In this document: positions 20,072 through 57,652 of the stretch, piece by piece | How positions within the stretch are numbered: position 1 is the stretch's first letter | Layout of the letters: the number at the start of each line of letters is the position of its first letter | Assembly (NCBI GenBank): GCA_964016885.1 | Contig: OZ024747.1 | Location: 22,940,001 to 23,004,000, forward strand | Length of the DNA: 64,000 nt | DNA from: Eledone cirrhosa | Taxonomy: Eukaryota | Direction: 5' to 3' | Position numbers and translations under genes: made by a program | Notes under the pieces: generated by a model | What the model saw: the letters and a program-made list of their open reading frames with translations, nothing else | Told to the model about the DNA's origin: nothing | The model's database searches: none

Positions 20072-23000
20072 CTTCCAGCCTACCTCCACCCAAGTTTATC
20101 CTCAGTCTACCCACCTCCAGCCTACCTCCACCCCAGTTTATCCTCAGTCTACCCACCTCCAGCAATACCCTCCACCCCAGTTTATCCTCAGTCTACCCAC
20201 CTCCAGCAATACCCTCCACCCCAGTTTATCCTCAGTCTACCCACCTCCAGCCTACCTCCACCCCAGTTTATCCTCAGTCTACCCACCGCCAGCAATACCC
20301 TCCACCCCAGTTTATCCTCAGTCTACCCACATCCAGCAATACCTTCGACCCCAGTTTATCCTCAGTCTACCCACCTCCAGCAATACCCTCCACCCCAGTT
20401 TATCCTCAGTCTTCCCACCTCCAGCAACACCTCCACCCCAGTTTATCCTCAGTCTACCCACCTCCAGCAATACCCTCCACCCCAGTTTATCCTCAGTCTA
20501 CCCACCTCCAGCAATACCCTCCACCCCAGTTTATCCTCAGTCTACCCACCTCCAGCCTACCTCCACCCCAGTTTATCCTCAGTCTTCCCACCTCCAGCAA
20601 TACCCTCCACCCCAGTTTATCCTCAGTCTACCCACCTCCAGCAATACCCTCCACCCCAGTTTATCCTCAGTCTTCCCACCTCCAGCAATACCTTCGACCC
20701 CAGTTTAGCCTCAGTCTACCCACCTCCAGCAATACCCTCCACCCAGTTATTCCTCAGTCTACCCACCTCTAGCAATACCCTCCACTCCAGTTTATCCTCA
20801 GTACCCACCTCCAGCCTACCCCACCCCAGTTTATCCTCAGTCTACCCACCTCCAGCAATACCCTCCACCCCATTTTATCCTCAGTCTACCCACATCCAGC
20901 AATACCTTCCACCCCAGTTTATCCTCAGTCTACCCACCTCCAGAAATACCCTCCACCCCAGTTTATCCTCAGTCTACCGACCTCCAGCAATACCCTCCAC
21001 CACAGTTTACCTTCAGTCTACCCACCTCCAGAAATACCCTCCACCCCAGTTTATCCTCAGTCTACCCACCTCCAGCAATACCTTCCACCCCAGTTTATCC
21101 TCAGTCTACCCACCTCCAGCAATACCCTCCACATCAGTTTATCCTCAGTCTACCCACCTCCAGCAATACCCTCCACCTAGGTTTATCCTCAGTCTTCCTA
21201 CCTCCAGTTATACCCTCCACCCCAGTTTATCCTCAGTCTTCCTACCTCCAGTTATACCCTCCACCCCAGTTTATCCTCAGTCTACCCACCTCCAGCAATA
21301 CCCTCCACCCCAGTTTATCCTCAGTCTACCGACCTCCAGCAATACCCTCCACCCCAGTTTACCATCAGTCTACCCACCTCCAGCAATACCCTCCACCCCA
21401 GTTTATCCTAAGTCTACCCACCTCCAACAATACCTTCCACCCCAGTTTATCCTCAGTCTACCCACCTCCAGCAATACCCTCCACCCCAGTTTATCCTCAG
21501 TCTTCCCACCTCCAGCAATACCCTCCACCCCAGTTTATCCTCAGTCTTCCCACCTCCAGCAATACCCTCCACCCCAGTTTATCCTCAGTCTACCCACCTC
21601 CAGCAATACCCTCCACCCCAGTTTATCCTCAGTCTTCCCACCTCCAGCAACACCTCCACCCCAGTTTATCCTCAGTCTACCCACCTCCAGCAATACCCTC
21701 CACCCCAGTTTATCCTCAGTCTACCCACCTCCAGCAATACCTTCCACCCCAGTTTATCCTCAGTCTTCCCACCTCCAGCAATACCCTCCACCCCAGTTTA
21801 TCCTCAGTCTTCCCACCTCCAGCCCAGTTTATCCTCAGTCTTCCCACCTCCAGTCTACCTCCACCCCAGTTTATCCTCAGCCTACCCACCTCCAGCAATA
21901 CTTTCCACCCCAGTTTATCCTCAGTCTTCCCACCTCCAGCAATACCTTCCACCCCAGTTTATCCTCAGTCTACCCACCTCCAGCAATACCCTCCACCCCA
22001 GTTCATCCTCAGTCTACCCACCTCCAGCCATACCCTCCACCCCAGTTTATCCTCAGTCTACCCACCTCCAGCCATACCCTCCACCCCAGTTTATCCTCAG
22101 TCTACCCACCTCCAGCAATACCCTCCACCCCAGTTTATCCTCAGTCTACCCACCTCCAGCAATACCTTCCACCCCAGTTTATCCTCAGTCTTCCCACCTC
22201 CAGCAATACCCTCCACCCCAGTTTCTCCTCAGTCTACCCACCTCCAGCAATACCTTCCACCCCAGTTTATCCTCAGTCTTCCCACCTCCAGCAATACCCT
22301 CCACACCAGTTTATCCTCAGTCTACCCACCTCCAGCAATACCCTCCACCCCAGTTTATCCTCAGTCTTCCCACCCCCAGCCCAGTTTATCCTCAGTCTTC
22401 CCACCTCCAGCCTACCTCCACCCCATTTTATCCTCAGTCTACCCACCTCCAGCCATACCCTCCACCCCAGTTTATTTTCAGTCTACCCACCTCCAGCAAT
22501 ACCTTCCACCCAGTTTATCCTCAGTCTACCCACCTCCAGTCATACCCTCCACCCCAGTTTATCCTCAGTCTACCCACCTCCAGCAATACCCTCCACCCCA
22601 GTTTATCCTCAGTTTACCCACCTCCAGCCATAACCTCCACCCCAGTTTATCCTCAGTCTACCCACCTCCAGCAATACCTTCCACCCCAGTTTATCCTCAG
22701 TCTTCCCACCTCCAGCAATACCTTCCACCCCAGTTTATCCTCAGTCTACCCACCTCCAGCCATACCCTCCACCCCAGTTTATCCTCAGTCTACCCACCTC
22801 CAGCAATACCTTCCACCCCAGTTTATCCTCAGTCTACCCACCTCCAGCAATACCTTCCACCCCAGTTTATCCTCAGTCTACCCACCTCTAGCAATACCTT
22901 CCACCCCAGTTTATCCTCAGTCTACCCACCTCCAACAATACCCTCCACCCCAGTTTATCCTCAGTCTACCCACCTCTAGCAATACCTTCCACCCCAGTTT

Positions 23001-24008
23001 ATCCTCAGTCTACCCACCTCCAGCAATACCCTCCACCCCAGTTTATCCTCAGTCTACCCACCTCCAGCCATACCCTCCACCCCAGTTTATCCTCAGTCTA
23101 CCCACCTCCAGCCATACCCTCCACCCCAGTTTATCCTCAGTCTACCCACCTCCAGCCATACCCTCCACCCCAGTTTATCCTCAGTCTACCCACCTCCAGC
23201 CATACCCTCCACCCCAGTTTATCCTCAGTCTACCCACCTCCAGCCATACCCTCCACCCCAGTTTATCCTCAGTCTACCCACCTCCAGCCATACCCTCCAC
23301 CCCAGTTCATCCTCAGTCTACCCACCTCCAGCCATACCCTCCACCCCAGTTTATCCTCAGTCTACCCACCTCCAGCCATACCCTCCACCCCAGTTTATCC
23401 TCAGTCTACCCACCTCCAGCCATACCCTCCACCCCAGTTTATCCTCAGTCTACCCACCTCCAGCCATACCCTCCACCCCAGTTTATCCTCAGTCTACCCA
23501 CCTCCAGCCATACCCTCCACCCCAGTTTATCCTCAGTCTACCCACCTCCAGCCATACCCTCCACCCCAGTTTATCCTCAGTCTACCCACCTCCAGCAATA
23601 CCCTCCACCCCAGTTTATCCTCAGTCTACCCACCTCCAGCCATACCCTCCACCCCAGTTTATCCTCAGTCTACTCACCTCCAGCAATACCCTCCACCCCA
23701 GTTCATCCTCAGTCTACCCACCTCCAGCCATACCCTCCACCCCAGTTTATCCTCAGTCTACCCACCTCCAGCCATACCCTCCACCCCAGTTTATCCTCAG
23801 TCTACCCACCTCCAGCCATACCCTCCACCCCAGTTCATCCTCAGTCTACCCACCTCCAGCCATACCCTCCACCCCAGTTTATCCTCAGTCTACCCACCTC
23901 CAGCCATACCCTCCACCCCAGTTCATCCTCAGTCTACCCACCTCCAGCCATACCCTCCACCCCAGTTTATCCTCAGTCTACCCACCTCCAGCCATACCCT
24001 CCACCCCA
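20072..24008. repeat. 44-bp minisatellite with 41-bp variants, about 90 copies
   Basis: Unit CCACCCCAGTTTATCCTCAGTCTACCCACCTCCAGC(A/C)ATACCCT. Confidence 0.98.
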
Positions 24009-32524: not shown

Positions 32525-35310
32525 AGACACACACACACATGTACACATATCTACACGCCGACACACACACATGTACCATATCTTCACGTCGACACACACA
32601 CATGTACACATATCTACACGTCGACACACACACATGTACACATATCTACACGCCGACACACACACATGTACACATATCTACACGCCGACACACACACATG
32701 TACACATATCTACACGCCGACACACACATACCAACGAGACACACACACATGTACATACATCTACACACTAACACACACACATACCAACGAAGACACACAC
32801 ATGTACACGTCAATGCACACACACACATACGAACGAAGACACACATGTGTACGCAAATCTATACGCCAACACACACACATGTACACATACGAACGAAGAT
32901 ACACACACATATATACACGCCAACATACACAAGTACCCATACATACACAGCAACACATACATACGAACGAAGTAACACATGTACACACACATACGAACGA
33001 AGTAACACATGTACACACACATACGAACGAAGACACACATACAAACGAAGACACACACACATGTACACATACATACAAACGAAGACACACACATGTAACC
33101 ATACATACGAACGAAGACACACATGTACACATACATACAAAGGAAGACACACACATGTACACATACAAACGAAGACACATACATACGAACGAAGACACAC
33201 ACATGTACACATACATACAAAGGAAGACACACACATGTTCACACACATACGAACGAAGACATACATGTACACATACATACGAACGAAGACACATACATGT
33301 ACACATACATACAAAGGAAGACACACACATGTACACATACATACAAAGGAAGACACACACATGTTCACACACATACGAACGAAGACATACATGTACACAT
33401 ACATACGAACGAAGACACACTCATGTACACATACATACGAACGAAGACACACACATGTACACATACATACGAACGAAGACACACTCATGTACACATACAT
33501 ACGAACGAAGACACACACATGTACACATACATACGAACGAAGACACACACATGTACACATACATACGAACGAAGACACACACATGTACACATACATACGA
33601 ACGAAGACACACACATGTACACATACATACGAACGAAGACACATACATATGTACACATACATACGAACGAAGACACACACATGTACACATACATACGAAC
33701 GAAGACACACACAAGTACACATACATACGAACGAAGACACACACATGTACACATACATACAAACGAAGACACACACATGTACACATACATACGAACGAAG
33801 ACACACACATGTACACATACATACGAACGAAGACACACACAAGTACACATACATACGAACGAAGACACACACATGTACACATACATACGAAAGAAGACAC
33901 ACATGTACACATACATACGAAAGAAGACACATAGATGTACACATACATACGAACGAAGACACACACATGTACACATACATACGAACGAAGACACACACAT
34001 GTACACATACATACGAACGAAGACACACACATGTACACATACATACGAACGAAGACACACACATGTACACATACATACGAACGAAGACACACACATGTAC
34101 ACATACATACGAACGAAGACACACACAAGTACACATACATACGAACGAAGACACACACATGTACTCATACATGCGAACGAAGACACATACATGTACACAT
34201 ACATACGAACGAAGACACACACATGTACACATACATACGAACGAAGACACACACAAGTACACATACATACGAACGAAGACACACACATGTACACATACAT
34301 ACGAACGAAGACACACACAAGTACACATACATACGAACGAAGACACACACATGTACACATACATACGAACGAAGACACACACAAGTACACATACATACGA
34401 ACGAAGACACACACATGTACTCATACATACGAACGAAGACACACACATGTACACATACATGCGAACGAAGACACACACAAGTACACATACATACGAACGA
34501 AGACACACATGTACACATACATACGAACGAAGACACACATGTACACATACATACGAACGAAGACACCTACATGTACACATACATACGAACGAAGACACAC
34601 ACAAGTACACATACATACGAACGAAGACACACACATGTACTCATACATACGAACGAAGACACACACATGTACACATACATGCGAACGAAGACACACACAA
34701 GTACACATACATACGAACGAAGACACACATGTACACATACATACGAACGAAGACACACATGTACACATACATACGAACGAAGACACACACATGTACACAT
34801 ACATACGAACGAAGACACACATGTACACATACATACGAACGAAGACACACACATGTACTCATACATACGAACGAAGACACACACATGTACACATACATGC
34901 GAACGAAGACACACACAAGTACACATACATACGAACGAAGACACACATGTACACATACATACGAACGAAGACACACACATGTACACATACATACGAACGA
35001 AGACACACACATGTACTCATACATACGAACGAAGACACACACATGTACACATACATACGAACGAAGACACACACATGTACTCATACATACGAACGAAGAC
35101 ACACACATGTACACATACATACGAACGAAGACACACACATGTACTCATACATACGAACGAAGACACACACATGTACACATACATACGAACGAAGACACAC
35201 ACATGTACACATACATACGAACGAAGACACACACATGTACACATACATACGAACGAAGACACACACATGTACACATACATACGAACGGAGACACATACAA
35301 ACGAAGACAG
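32525..35310. repeat. Minisatellite of about 32 bp derived from (CA)n-rich sequence
   Basis: Unit ACACATGTACACATACATACGAACGAAGACAC. Confidence 0.97.
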
Positions 35311-37084: not shown

Positions 37085-37143
<59 letters not shown>

Positions 37144-37144
<1 letters not shown>

Positions 37145-38058
37145 GGTCTTTATTCTCTCGTTCACGATTCCACCGAATTTATATTCATAGAAATCTGGGC
37201 TCTTGTTTCTTTCTTCTTCATCACTTTCTGTTGCTTAAACCATTTTGTTTGTTTACCCTAGCGTCCCCTTTATTTACGTGTCCCAACGACTTTTTTTAGC
37301 CGTTGCTCGCACCAACCTGAGGTATATGGCCTTTAATGCGACGAAATGCCTACGACGGTTGGAAGGCCACTGATGAGGACAAACTTTTTCATATGTAACC
37401 CATTTGCAGCGCCGCAGCTCCATTATTATCATATTTACACATATATTTTTTTCTCCGCTGCCACCAGTCTGTTTCGTTCTTTGTGTCTTTACCCTTTCTA
37501 GCAGTCTCTCTCTCTCTGTTAGCCTCTTCCTCACCTTTCACTCACTCATTCTCTGTCACTACCTCTCCTCCTCCCCTTTCTTCCCGTTTGACCTGTCCGT
37601 AATCCTTTTCTCGCGGGCACTTGGCCAAGCCGGTATGAATTTTTTTTTCTCTCTCTCTCGTCTGCGACTTCACAGAACTTATGTTTACCGAATTCGCAGA
37701 CCAGACCCCTTCTTCCTCCCGTTAGACCTGTGCGAAATTCCTTCCTTGCTCACATTTCAACCAGGTTTGATGGTCTTTATTCTCTCGTTCACGATTCCAC
37801 CGAATTTATATTCATAGAAATCTGGGACTTGTTTCTTTCTTCTTCATCACTTTCTGTTGCTTAAACCATTTTGTTTGTTTACCCTAGCGTCCCCTTTATT
37901 TACGTGTCCCAACGACTTTTTTTAGCCGTTGCTCGCACCAACCTGAGGTATATGGCCTTTAATGCGACGAAATGCCTACGACGGTTGGATGGCCACTGAT
38001 GAGGACAAACTTTTTCATATGTAACCCATTTGCAGCGCCGCAGCTCCATTATTATCAT
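37144..38058 (+). mobile_element. 626-bp tandem unit (about 1.46 copies) in (TA)n, carrying the permuted HHR motif
   Basis: Direct repeat with 626-bp offset; motifs at 37312-37377 and 37938-38003. Confidence 0.85.
37312..37377 (+). ncRNA. Permuted hammerhead-like motif with kink-turn, variant A
   Basis: CCAACC-TGA-GGTA-TA-TGGCCTT-TAATGCGA-C-GAAA-TGCC-TAC-GAC-GGTTGG-AAGGCCA-CTGATGA-G. Confidence 0.7.
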
Positions 38059-38299
38059 ATATATATATATATATATATATGATGCGAGAAAAACTACAGT
38101 CCCTCCATCTCAATTCTACTTTTGAAAAGCATAAGAACTGTGAAATCGGCAAAGGAAACAAATAAATATTCTTAAAAAAGACTCCAATTAAATTTTCAAT
38201 TCCAACTCTTTTCCTTATACTTTCACTCGTTTTTTTTTCATTAAAAAAAAACCTAATTTTCTTATATATATATATATGTATATATGTATATATATATAT

Positions 38300-43170: not shown

Positions 43171-43572
43171 CTTTCGCACCCTTGGTCTGGCAGGTCGCTT
43201 TTTTTCTCTCTCTCGTCTACGATTTCACAGAACTTACGTTCACCGAATTCACAGACTAGATCCCTTCTTCCTCCCGTTAGACCTGTACGGAATTCCTTCC
43301 TTGCTCACATTCCAACCAGGTTTGATGGTCTTTATTCTCTCTCGTTCACGATTTCACCGAATTTAAATTCATAGAAATTTGGGACTTGACTCCTTCTTCC
43401 TCACTTTTCGTTGCTTCACCATTTTGTTTGTTTACACTCGTGTTCCCTTTTATTTACGTGTCCCAACGACTTTTTTTAGCCGTTGCTCGCACCAACCGGA
43501 GGTATATGGTCTTTAAAGCGATGAAATACCAATGATGGTTGGAAGATCACTGATGAAGGACTAACTTTATTC
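43171..43572 (+). mobile_element. Diverged partial copy of the 626-bp family, with permuted HHR variant B at 43492-43557
   Basis: Aligns to about 37605-38020; flanked by (TA)n. Confidence 0.85.
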
Positions 43573-52242: not shown

Positions 52243-53183
<941 letters not shown>

Positions 53184-53613: not shown

Positions 53614-54667
53614 TATTAATAATGAGTTCAAACCTCAGGCAGTCCTTTACAATGTAATAGCTCAAAGATAGAAGTATTTCCGAGCCGTGTAATACTAGTT
53701 AATATAAATTAATATATTTGATAAACACAAATACCAACATATCCGTGTTTGTATTGTAAACGACTAAAGTTAGCTAGATTGAAAAATACTAATTATAATA
53801 ATACAGTTTGCCTGTCTCGATTTAAAATAATAAATCAATAAAAACAAAGCATATTGGCAAATGGCCGTGGTGCTTGGAAAAATTTAAATTTCAAAATCAA
53901 ACCTGTTCCGTAGACAGGCTTAAACCTTAAAATCCAAATATGTTTCGAAAAATGAAAAAAGTGGAAGAATACCGCATTTCTATCTCCTCAGCAAGCACCA
54001 GAAAAATTGGTATGTTCCACTTCAAAATATTTAAAAAGACTGTTTAACGCACATGGTTTATCACATACGGTTATCCAGTGTCTAGCTGCCCCATACTCGT
54101 GCTGCTAGAAATAACAGCCGTTTATATAGGGCTAAATTTAGCTCTACGTAAGGAGAAGTATACTATTAATAATGAGTTCAAACCTCAGGCAGTCCTTTAC
54201 AATGTAATAGCTCAAAGAAAGAAGTATTTCCGAGCCGTGTAATACTAGTTAATATAAATTAATATATTTGATAAACACAAATACCAACATATCCGTGTTT
54301 GTATTGTAAACGACTAAAGTTAGCTAGATTGAAAAATACTAATTATAATAATACAGTTTGCCTGTCTCGATTTAAAATAATAAATCAATAAAACCAAAGC
54401 ATATTGGCAAATGGCCGTGGTGCTTGAACAAATTTAAATTTCAAAATCAAACCTGTTCCGTAGACAGGCTTAAACCATTTAGACAGGCTTAGAGCCATTT
54501 GTCAATATGCTTTGTTTTTATTGATTTATTATTTTAAATCGAGACAGGCAAACTGTATTATTATAATTAGTATTTTTCAATCTAGCTAACTTTAGTCGTT
54601 TACAATACAAACACGGATATGTTGGTATTTGTGTTTATCAAATATATTAATTTATATTAACTAGTAT
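53614..54667. mobile_element. 550-bp direct repeat (about 1.6 copies) plus a terminal inverted segment, flanked by (TA)n
   Basis: Repeats start at 53614 and 54164; 54494-54667 is the reverse complement of 54242-54416. Confidence 0.85.
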
Positions 54668-54681
54668 GTATATATATATAC

Positions 54682-54712
<31 letters not shown>

Positions 54713-54738
54713 CACACACATATATATATATATATATA

Positions 54739-56505
54739 TGGTACTATTCTCTAAGCGCTCATATATTCACCTAGCTTATGCTAAACAGAATAATTTTTGA
54801 AGCTTGTTTCTCCCCTACGGTATGCTATATTTTCTGTTGTTCTCCTGTCTCACTCGCTTTACGCGTTTTAATTGTCCTAATAACTTATTTTGGTTATTAT
54901 TGCACCGAAGTGAGATATATGATTTTTAATGCAATGAAATATCTATGATCTTCGGCAAATCACTGATGAGGGACTTATTTTATTACATGTTACCATGTGC
55001 TACCTGCAGTATTTTTCTCTATATTTTAATACATATATTTACCACTGCGATTCTGTGTTTTTTCTCTCTCTCTTACTGTTCCCCCATTCTCTCTGTTTCT
55101 CCCCCTCTGTCTTGTCCGTTAACTCTTCCTCACACTTTCACTCACTCACTGTTTTTCTCCCTCTTCTCTTCATTTCATCCTGCACTCACGAACGCTATTT
55201 TTTCTCTCTCTCTGCTCAATAGCCTTCGTTCGTGTTGGTACTATTCTCTAAGCGCTCATATATTCACCTAGCTTATGCTAAACAGAATAATTTTTGAAGC
55301 TTGTTTCTCCCCTACGGTATGCTATATTTTCTGTTGTTCTCCCGTCTCACTCGCTTTACGCGTTTTAATTGTCCTAATAACTTATTTTGGTTATTATTGC
55401 ACCGAAGTGAGATATATGATTTTTAATGCAATGAAATATCTATGATCTTCGGCAAATCACTGATGAGGGACTTATTTTATTACATGTTACCATGTGCTAC
55501 CTGCAGTATTTTTCTCTATATTTTAATACATATATTTACCACTGCGATTCTGTGTTTTTTTCTCTCTCTCTTACTGTTCCCCCATTCTCTCTGTTTCTCC
55601 CCCTCTGTCTTGTCCGTTAACTCTTCCTCACACTTTCACTCACTCACTGTTTTTCTCCCTCTTCTCTTCATTTCATCCTGCACTCACGAACGCTATTTTT
55701 TCTCTCTCTCTGCTCAATAGCCTTCGTTCGTGTTGGTACTATTCTCTAAGCGCTCATATATTCACCTAGCTTATGCTAAACAGAATAATTTTTGAAGCTT
55801 GTTTCTCCCCTACGGTATGCTATATTTTCTGTTGTTCTCCTGTCTCACTCGCTTTACGCGTTTTAATTGTCCTAATAACTTATTTTGGTTATTATTGCAC
55901 CGAAGTGAGATATATGATTTTTAATGCAATGAAATATCTATGATCTTCGGCAAATCACTGATGAGGGACTTATTTTATTACATGTTACCATGTGCTACCT
56001 GCAGTATTTTTCTCTATATTTTAATACATATATTTACCACTGCGATTCTGTGTTTTTTTCTCTCTCTCTTACTGTTCCCCCATTCTCTCTGTTTCTCCCC
56101 CTCTGTCTTGTCCGTTAACTCTTCCTCACACTTTCACTCACTCACTGTTTTTCTCCCTCTTCTCTTCATTTCATCCTGCACTCACGAACGCTATTTTTTC
56201 TCTCTCTGCTCAATAGCCTTCGTTCGTGTTGGTACTATTCTCTAAGCGCTCATATATTCACCTAGCTTATGCTAAACAGAATAATTTTTGAAGTTTGTTT
56301 CTCCCCTACGGTATGCTATATTTTCTGTTGTTCTCCTGTCTCACTCGCTTTACGCGTTTTAATTGTCCTAATAACTTATTTTGGTTATTATTGCACCGAA
56401 GTGAGATATATGATTTTTAATGCAATGAAATATCTATGATCTTCGGCAAATCACTGATGAGGGACTTATTTTATTACATGTTACCATGTGCTACCTGCAG
56501 TATTT

Positions 56506-56508
<3 letters not shown>
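54739..56508 (+). mobile_element. Tandem array of about 497 bp (about 3.55 near-identical copies) with permuted HHR variant C; retrozyme-like
   Basis: Motifs at 54905, 55402, 55900 and 56396; (TA)n on both sides; non-coding. Confidence 0.88.
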
Positions 56509-56586
<78 letters not shown>

Positions 56587-56612
56587 TATATATATATATA
56601 TATATATACAGA

Positions 56613-56653
<41 letters not shown>

Positions 56654-57220
56654 GTATACATATATATATATATGGTGATGGCGGAGTGGTTAGAGAATTG
56701 GATTCGCAATCGTGAGGTTGTGAGTTCGATTGCTGGACCGGGCGGTGCGATATGTCCTTCTACCTGGAGATGCGACTGATAGATTGTATTAGCAATTGGA
56801 AAGACCAACAGAAACATTGTTTCCTCGGTCCGATTTGACGAAAGTCAATCGACTATTGATATATATATATAATTTAAAAAAAACAAGGAATAACCAGTTA
56901 AAATTTACAACATAGTTTTACTCTACGAACGTTTCAATACAGGAGGGCGTTCAGGGCTACAAAGATATATTGATAAACTCCAGTATAACTTTTGATTATA
57001 CGATTCCAGAGCCGGGCCAGGTCGATACAGATCGAACCTTGAGCTGATCAATAGCGAAACGTGCTTCACCAATCAATAAACGTAATGAAGGCTTAACAAA
57101 TCGTCCTTGTATTATTATTATATTACACTCTGTCTAGCTCTACACCTCGCCATTAACGTGAACCTAAACACCGAGTGCTCACCTGGGTGAACCTACAGTA
57201 ACTCCAAGTTACACTCCCTG

Positions 57221-57299
<79 letters not shown>

Positions 57300-57498
57300 C
57301 GAAGGAAATGTGGTAAGGAACCAGGTGAACCATAACGCACCAAAGTACTCAATACTTAGAGTAGTAGAGTAGGTAATATGAACAAGTAAGACCCCGACGG
57401 CTGAGCTCAAACCGTTTCGACGGCTAATTCTGTACTCAATTCTGTACAGAATTAGCCGTCGAAACGGCTTGAGCTCAGCCGTCGGGGTCTTACTTGTT

Positions 57499-57602: not shown

Positions 57603-57652
57603 GGCTTCTACAGGACTAGAACTGTTTCATTCGGGAGAAATCATCAGAAGCC
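57603..57652 (-). ncRNA. Type I hammerhead-like motif
   Basis: Minus: GGCTT-CTGATGA-TTTCTCCCGAAT-GAAA-CAG-TTCTAGTC-CTG-TA-GAAGCC; stem I register is off by one. Confidence 0.6.

Follow-up and report, generated by a model that had tools for sequence, protein, structure and literature searches.

Introduction

Metazoan non-LTR retrozymes carry, by definition, a type I hammerhead ribozyme (relevant passages of PMC7229834 and bioRxiv 10.64898/2026.07.22.740005). The tandem units described there are short, non-coding and low in GC and contain one hammerhead apiece; they are dispersed as monomers to multimers, and they are proposed to be mobilised by Penelope-like elements (PLEs). The hammerhead of type SGC has been published only from metatranscriptomes and, according to the passages of Eckert et al. 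2023 (PMC10085705) that deal with it, was not found in the genomes of known organisms. The scheme given there assumes that the stem II strand follows directly after CUGAnGA. Type CSG has been published from just two metagenome sequences. Among the PLEs, Naiads are described in parts of PMC8557442 as preferring (TA)n and as forming tandem and inverted insertions; the same parts report them to be without canonical hammerheads, some being marked 'HHR_half_core', and report the cephalopod Naiads as decayed. A purified PLE protein was found to prime internally and to use mainly unprocessed RNA, and ribozyme cleavage was not needed in vitro (PMC11167929).

Here, we describe a tandem array in a 64-kb stretch of Eledone DNA (the whole stretch is called the window) and the repeat family to which it belongs. 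Apart from the type I hammerhead, the family shares with the metazoan retrozymes, as the cited passages present them, the features listed above for them. It differs from them in that its core is S-G-C with a stem II predicted to be split and not of type I, its monomer appears weakly folded as a linear molecule, and its link is to Naiads and not to PLEs with canonical hammerheads. With type SGC, as far as the published passages go, it has in common the order cleavage site, GAAA, CUGAnGA, the full core, a short linker between stems I and II and a helix bridging their distal ends. Unlike type SGC, the stem II block is split, one strand lies 5' of the cleavage block, a four-way junction is predicted to form with helices a, b and c, and the copies within one animal genome run into the thousands. 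Naiads, in turn, are matched in (TA)n targeting, in tandem, inverted and 5'-truncated insertions, and in the wiring of the 3' ribozyme; the differences are that the family has no ORF (the N-terminal GIY-YIG endonuclease and the C-terminal RT are missing) and is young, whereas the Naiads found in this genome are decayed. Because the hammerhead is not of type I and its stem II is not contiguous, the element is filed here as neither a retrozyme nor an SGC ribozyme, and since the first of these departures concerns the hammerhead itself, the ribozyme and not the array is the novel part. Type I descriptors and Rfam miss it because its block order is non-circularly permuted. Neither this wiring nor a permuted hammerhead of a Naiad or retrozyme was found described in the literature searched, a set that takes in few subscription journals and leaves out two key supplements; relevant passages of PMC13159263, PMC13725137 and PMC10162972 hold none, and those of the Naiad paper (PMC8557442) do not describe the permuted fold.

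Results

Tandem array at the locus

The array (Table 1) consists of 3.56 non-coding units that are about 99.5% alike, with (TA)n runs on both sides. TRF reported a 498-period array from 54739 with 3.6 copies and 99% matches. The units start at 54740, 55237, 55735 and 56231, which gives lengths of 497, 498 and 496 nt and a partial unit of ~279 nt. The three full units are one substitution and some microsatellite-length indels apart, and the partial unit shows one difference more. When the unit was doubled, the longest stop-free stretch in any frame was 113 codons. Each unit contains a single CUGAUGA (54963, 55460, 55958 and 56454). The sequence-only reading had described about 3.55 near-identical non-coding units with one motif each, bounded by (TA)n, and both TRF and the comparison of units agree with it. 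The GC content across 54001-56000 is 0.34, below the ~45-50% low-GC limit of metazoan non-LTR retrozymes. Metazoan non-LTR retrozymes are without LTR, PBS and PPT, and their target site duplication, where there is one, exceeds 4 bp; any such duplication of the array would be masked by the (TA)n flanks. Rfam at gathering thresholds gave no match in the window, and no read across the array was found among four runs (contigs of unrecorded kind); two short contigs of a second organism were too weak as evidence. The 3' tail of the array is a putative internal priming site for reverse transcription. The window holds three further copies or pairs of this ribozyme class.

Table 1. Positions of the array, its predicted ribozymes and related insertions in the window.
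Feature	Position	Strand	Remarks
5' (TA)n-type microsatellite, left half of likely target site	54665..54739	.	TRF and sequence
Array of 3.56 units	54740..56509	+	5'-truncated start, 181 nt before first predicted cleavage site
Predicted rewired hammerhead, copy 1	54874..54974	+	covariation
Copy 1, helix a / a'	54874-77 / 54971-74	+	
Copy 1, hairpin b	54878-99	+	
Copy 1, helix c / c'	54900-04 / 54930-34	+	stem II
Copy 1, helix d / d'	54905-10 / 54950-55	+	stem I-II bridge
Copy 1, stem III	54913-18 / 54939-44	+	
Copy 1, stem I	54920-25 / 54957-62	+	
Copy 1, H17	A54919	+	
Copy 1, GAAA	54936-39	+	
Copy 1, CUGAUGA	54963-69	+	possible G54970.U54935 pair after it
Predicted cleavage site	54919..54920	+	between UA and UGAUUU; inferred by analogy with hammerhead core
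Equivalent predicted cleavage sites	after 55416, 55914, 56410	+	monomers 497, 498, 496 nt
Ribozyme copy 2	55366..55475	+	
Ribozyme copy 3	55864..55973	+	
Ribozyme copy 4 (last)	56360..56469	+	
Array 3' tail	56470..56509	+	recurrent TA-microhomology junction of family, 55 nt past C3
3' (TA)n microsatellite, right half of likely target site	56509..56673	.	TRF
Second insertion, subfamily C, 626-nt period	37142..38080	+	(TA)n-flanked; outer limits approximate
Ribozymes of second insertion (two copies)	37275-37384, 37901-38010	+	subfamily C
Ribozyme of third insertion	43455..43565	+	5'-truncated, subfamily C-like
Fold-back pair of 5'-truncated ribozyme halves	52274..52388	.	another subfamily; junction by eye

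Dispersed repeat family

A search of the 3.0-Gb assembly with the array unit gave 951 candidate places and 163 matches. The best 40 of the 951 candidates were scored; all proved to be arrays of 1.6-7.8 units, 95-100% identical and spread over many contigs, and the set is biased to long arrays. Because near-identical arrays of these lengths lie on many contigs, an assembly artefact or a single-locus satellite, which had been named beforehand as outcomes that would refute the retrozyme reading, is very unlikely. A 24-nt pattern over the cleavage and GAAA blocks had 4982 exact matches in the genome and none in the reversed control. Sister families gave 3366, 1177 and 643 candidates. Along one contig (C1), 70 elements taken in order contained one motif match in 57 cases, two in 11, three in one and four in one; a nine-motif array that runs off its locus was left out of this series. 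The periods of related subfamilies are ~490-630 nt, and that of a more distant subfamily is ~770 nt. The upstream flanks of subfamilies D and E showed no long common body outside the unit, and the family pattern was found in no metagenome contigs. Among 94 monomers of family A, divergence was 0.54% within arrays and 1.59% between arrays, so we consider this family young. The genome-wide search thus recovered dispersed copies with variable start phases and (TA)n flanks, as the sequence-only reading had anticipated, and its proposal of a new retrozyme family holds at the sequence level for a young, dispersed, non-coding, retrozyme-like element with a permuted hammerhead.

Ends of the insertions

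In 39 of the 40 family-A arrays, the 3' end could be placed relative to C3 of the last ribozyme: 21-24 nt past it in 4 arrays, 53-59 nt in 12 and 66-71 nt in 23. The same 39 arrays run into (TA)n, and the fortieth is cut by the edge of its locus. At these end positions the unit itself contains TA-like letters. The 5' starts are spread over the whole unit (70 + 43 elements), and 2 of the 40 family-A arrays have an inverted 5' piece. The array had been said to start and end at unrelated phases of the unit. Its own two phases do differ and starts are free across the family; the 3' ends of the family are almost fixed, and to that extent the description had to be corrected. Such a pattern would result if copying were target-primed, began at an internal priming site and stopped at random.

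No accumulation of 5' starts was seen at the predicted cleavage site, with 3 of 113 within 4 nt of it, so that there is no statistical genomic trace of cleavage in vivo. Genome-wide, 78 5' ends were counted at the predicted cleavage site and 35 at a control site that has less microhomology. It follows from the missing pile-up that the template was usually continuous across this bond, being either a ligated circle or an uncleaved multimer. In the fold-back pair of Table 1, the minus-strand arm starts, by eye, at the first base past the predicted cleavage site; this is one isolated case, which is suggestive.

Predicted fold of the ribozyme

Each unit contains the blocks of a hammerhead core in the order cleavage site, GAAA, CUGAnGA (S-G-C), with all core bases present. 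Stems I and III of the array ribozyme are perfect 6-bp helices. The stem II strand does not lie 3' of CUGAnGA, where just one G.U pair is possible after the core, and it is supplied by an upstream strand through a four-way junction. In this arrangement, helix c/c' pairs the upstream strand with the strand preceding GAAA, helix a/a' pairs a strand further upstream with the one following the core, hairpin b, lying between a and c, completes the junction, and helix d connects stems I and II at their distal ends. Readings as type I, II, III or plain SGC were rejected, as by eye they leave just one base pair past CUGAUGA.

For covariation, 16 subfamily representatives were chosen by hand from 306 motif copies, subfamily E being left out, and aligned with MAFFT. 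Of the 560 cells of this alignment, 95% are paired; compensatory change occurs in 17 of the 35 pairs and at least once in each of the seven helices. None of 500 shuffles reached these values, a count that is not a probability because the structure was drawn from the same, related sequences; slid controls pair at 30-47%. Stem I is 99% paired with 4 of its 6 pairs compensatory, and stem III is 92% paired with one of 6. Helix d has 5 of 6 pairs compensatory, and the linker from stem I to stem II is 4 nt long. RNAalifold, unaided, recovered a, b, d and III. Single ribozyme copies folded modestly better than their shuffles (z -0.4 to -1.9). The core bases are the same in every subfamily; N7 and H17 differ among them, though H17 is in no case G. 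Positions 10.1 and 11.1 are complementary in 15 of the 16 copies of subfamilies A-D (G.U, A-U, U-A, G-C); in subfamily E and in many Naiads they are unable to pair, and the junction abuts the core. The linkers between helices d and III are 2 and 5 nt long, and the ends that they join should be far apart in the known fold; a similar difficulty with tight linkers is mentioned for SGC in passages of PMC10085705.

We consider it probable, from this predicted fold, that the motif is an active ribozyme. The 5' end of the RNA had been placed at TGATTTTT by the sequence-only reading, and the cleavage site derived here, after A54919, would give the same end. A monomer RNA of ~497 nt would have its ends at UGAUUUUU. 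One variant (L226:7080-7179, minus strand) has helix d almost missing and keeps a, b, c, I and III; it may be either a deletion copy or a minimal form.

The same wiring at the 3' ends of Naiads

For 50 published Naiad consensi (PMC8557442), the final 330-400 nt were read by eye; this reading is not an exhaustive parse of the set. Two Naiads from octopus, three from Acropora and one from a crustacean (EuTe) showed the full wiring, and S-G-C variants were seen in one squid, one ctenophore and one spider Naiad. The octopus Naiads share with several Eledone subfamilies not only the wiring but also, by eye, an 8-nt hairpin loop. A motif made from the published octopus Naiad ribozyme had no match in this genome at 2 mismatches.

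The arrangement was then examined at loci found with Naiad proteins in metagenome and genome collections, of which 34 were fetched and scanned in all six block orders. Seven had flanks that were too short and were dropped, leaving 27 usable loci with at least 150 nt of 3' flank. An S-G-C motif was present 3' of the Naiad ORF in 13 of the 27; twelve were called SGC, and one, L274, which was auto-labelled GSC, reads as SGC with a nearer GAAA. The reverse-complement, reversed and ORF controls each gave 0 of 27. Three near-duplicate pairs occur among the matches (L280/L300, L294/L295 and L279/L287). In the 12 matches called SGC, a directly following stem II would have 0-1 bp, and the upstream c strand offers 5-6 bp in 12 of the 13. 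In 12 of the 13 copies, position 11.1 carries a C that pairs with the upstream strand. The a, b, c junction is free of gaps in 5 of the 13, and helix b of L274 has only 2 bp. In L298, the motif is 1.9 kb away from the ORF and has no good c helix. Fourteen of the 27 flanks were below the match threshold, among them L270, which is just under it and fits by eye. The greedy parser mis-picks a and b in some copies (those of this genome, L294/L295 and L298), for which reason the 16-copy alignment is the reference for this genome. Rfam gave no match in six Naiad loci.

In these unrelated Naiads, too, the core bases do not change, and the variation at N7 and H17 is like that of active hammerheads. Because the stems of the Naiads and of the family share little sequence, it is the fold rather than the letters that is conserved; beyond topology and the one loop, the comparison of the array unit with Naiad ends showed no sequence homology. 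Taken together, the ribozyme is likely to be of Naiad ancestry.

Other 3' ends were also seen among the published consensi. Five nematode Naiads read, by eye, as type-CSG hammerheads with stems of at least 5 bp and an extra bridging helix. In bivalve, hemichordate and Clytia Naiads, another conserved RNA motif replaces the hammerhead. Naiad ORFs at L301-L303 lie in three prokaryotic MAG records, and these are most likely animal DNA contamination.

Candidate mobilising enzymes

Three protein searches, in which the top candidates were scored, gave no intact Naiad in this genome; all had broken frames, and the longest stop-free frames of the relics are 223, 298 and 434 aa. Of 30 relics examined, none had a convincing ribozyme 3' of it, with one weak descriptor match of 4+3 bp. 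A homologue search with a relic protein fragment gave nothing, and Naiad proteins gave no confirmed loci in viral contigs. Among the entries listed for 70 pattern-chosen loci, none had a long PLE ORF linked to the unit in the same orientation. At L123 and L167 there are PLE-like ORFs that stay open for 500-525 aa and have a GIY-YIG-like motif at the C terminus. A close relative in L119 ends in (TA)n, which is preceded by a hammerhead-like word whose core is altered. The candidate mobilisers are L167:4408-5982, L123:470-1969 and L119:1188-3327. The protein of L167 is unlike that of Naiads, the assignment of these ORFs as Hydra-like was made by eye, and Pfam had no name for any of 5 PLE-like proteins. 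Mobilisation of Penelope type, as proposed earlier, agrees with the (TA)n target, with the fixed 3' end, the 5' truncation, the inverted 5' pieces and the Naiad-type ribozyme. We regard the family as very probably a dispersed, PLE-mobilised element.

Discussion

We interpret the array as a recent insertion, likely of a non-autonomous descendant of Naiads that borrows a (TA)n-targeting RT/endonuclease, with a rearranged hammerhead that is predicted to self-cleave; we put the probability of this reading at roughly 0.78. Its observed base consists of the dispersal, the tandem units, the (TA)n flanks, the fixed 3' ends and the random 5' starts, together with the intact core, the seven covarying helices and the matching wiring 3' of Naiad ORFs. 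In the proposed cycle, read-through transcription of an array would produce a multimer. The upstream strand c would then complete stem II, a/a' and hairpin b would close the four-way junction, and d would tie stems I and II, so that cleavage after A54919 could free monomers of ~497 nt; ligation of these into circles may follow. A Penelope-type protein would nick a (TA)n tract, with internal priming in the AU-rich tail, 20-70 nt beyond the core. The enzyme would copy across the cleavage position, on a circle or on an uncleaved multimer with about even odds, and fall off at random, leaving non-integer, 5'-truncated and sometimes inverted arrays.

The reading least compatible with the data is that of a local minisatellite or assembly artefact in which hammerhead-like words follow one another by chance. 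Tandem repeats are abundant in the genome and the runs contain no read that spans the array, but thousands of dispersed copies with fixed 3' ends, the covariation, and 437 descriptor matches (overlapping loci included) against 1 in reversed sequence all speak against it; dispersal and covariation refute it, and we hold it to be extremely improbable. It is also unlikely, though far less so, that the motif is a conserved protein-binding RNA domain which does not cut, or cuts only as a dimer or with the help of protein. Such a domain would agree with the loss of the canonical 10.1-11.1 pair in many Naiad copies (C/C, U/C), with the tight linkers and the missing pile-up at the cleavage site, and with the report, in the relevant passages of bioRxiv 10.64898/2026.07.22.740005, that 8 of 9 predicted Xenopus retrozymes were without cleavage in vitro. 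It does not account as well for the constancy of the core bases in subfamilies and in unrelated Naiads alike, where N7 and H17 are free to vary, for the C at 11.1 paired upstream in 12 of 13 Naiad copies, or for the one fold-back junction exactly at the predicted site. The self-cleaving, Naiad-derived form is preferred.

Within the preferred reading, the nature of the template and the enzyme can each be weighed. Rolling-circle reverse transcription had been suggested on the strength of the non-integer copy number, and this argument does not hold by itself: internal priming at TA microhomology would fix the end and random truncation would set the start, and an uncleaved multimeric transcript would give an identical product. 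A circular template stays plausible on account of the homogeneity within arrays and the missing pile-up at the cleavage site, and we would rate it, on this model, a little below an even chance. That the arrays were made by rolling-circle copying of a ligated ~497-nt circle is, with the same slight reserve, suggested by 3-6 array-wide variants, a few of them private to their array, in 10 of the 13 arrays with three or more units, by unit-specific variants that are mostly absent from other arrays, by copying that passes through the cleavage position, and by the circles demonstrated for type I retrozymes (passages of PMC7229834). Uncleaved multimers of homogeneous source arrays, or local expansion, would however give the identical pattern, the PLE protein worked mainly on unprocessed RNA in vitro, with no need for cleavage, and the monomer, a highly self-paired one being a mark of metazoan non-LTR retrozymes, seems weakly structured when folded as a linear molecule (-74.9 kcal/mol, z -2.1, with a long unpaired pyrimidine tract). 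As for the enzyme, the scored Naiad relics are all broken, and so the young family may use a non-Naiad one. The chances are evenly balanced that the fold is real and Naiad-derived and that the present copies were moved by a Hydra- or Neptune-type PLE after the Naiads died, which refines the main explanation and does not oppose it. Family A is ~1% diverged while the Naiads found are decayed, the ORFs of L123 and L167 and the (TA)n-ended L119 are at hand, and Hydra elements prefer (TA)n; against this, the Hydra assignment was made by eye with no match in Pfam, and an intact Naiad of another lineage may have been missed where top candidates alone were scored.

A wider reading joins these parts: many Naiads of different animal phyla would hide permuted hammerheads, the family would pass through rolling circles of ~497 nt, and it would have outlived its Naiad parent by means of another (TA)n-targeting PLE enzyme. 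The hidden forms would be the four-block, four-way-junction one in cephalopods, corals, crustaceans and marine metagenomes, and type CSG in nematodes. As a whole, this remains tentative and rather doubtful. If the ribozyme is as predicted, its wiring lies beyond the six-permutation scheme of hammerheads, whose premise is that CUGAnGA is inseparable from its stem II strand. Non-circular permutations would go from a few metatranscriptome contigs to thousands of copies in an animal genome, and the reported want of canonical hammerheads in Naiads would have a direct answer. Retrozyme censuses are likely to be incomplete, because type I descriptors and Rfam miss this form. The role of the ribozyme in Penelope-like retrotransposition becomes testable with a 110-nt transcript.

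Neighbouring repeats

Other repeats lie in the same window. The array adjoins another (TA)n-bounded repeat at 53615-54667, with a ~540-nt tandem and an inverted arm; near 53991 its minus strand has a motif resembling a type I hammerhead, and it is probably another Penelope-derived element. On the other side, a very high-copy inverted repeat at 57380-57490 (minus strand) contains, by eye, a truncated type I hammerhead-like motif, and near it, at 57647 on the minus strand, a further CUGAUGA...GAAAC motif was seen by eye. Long minisatellites with 44-nt and 32-nt periods occupy 20083-24008 and 32819-35299, respectively.
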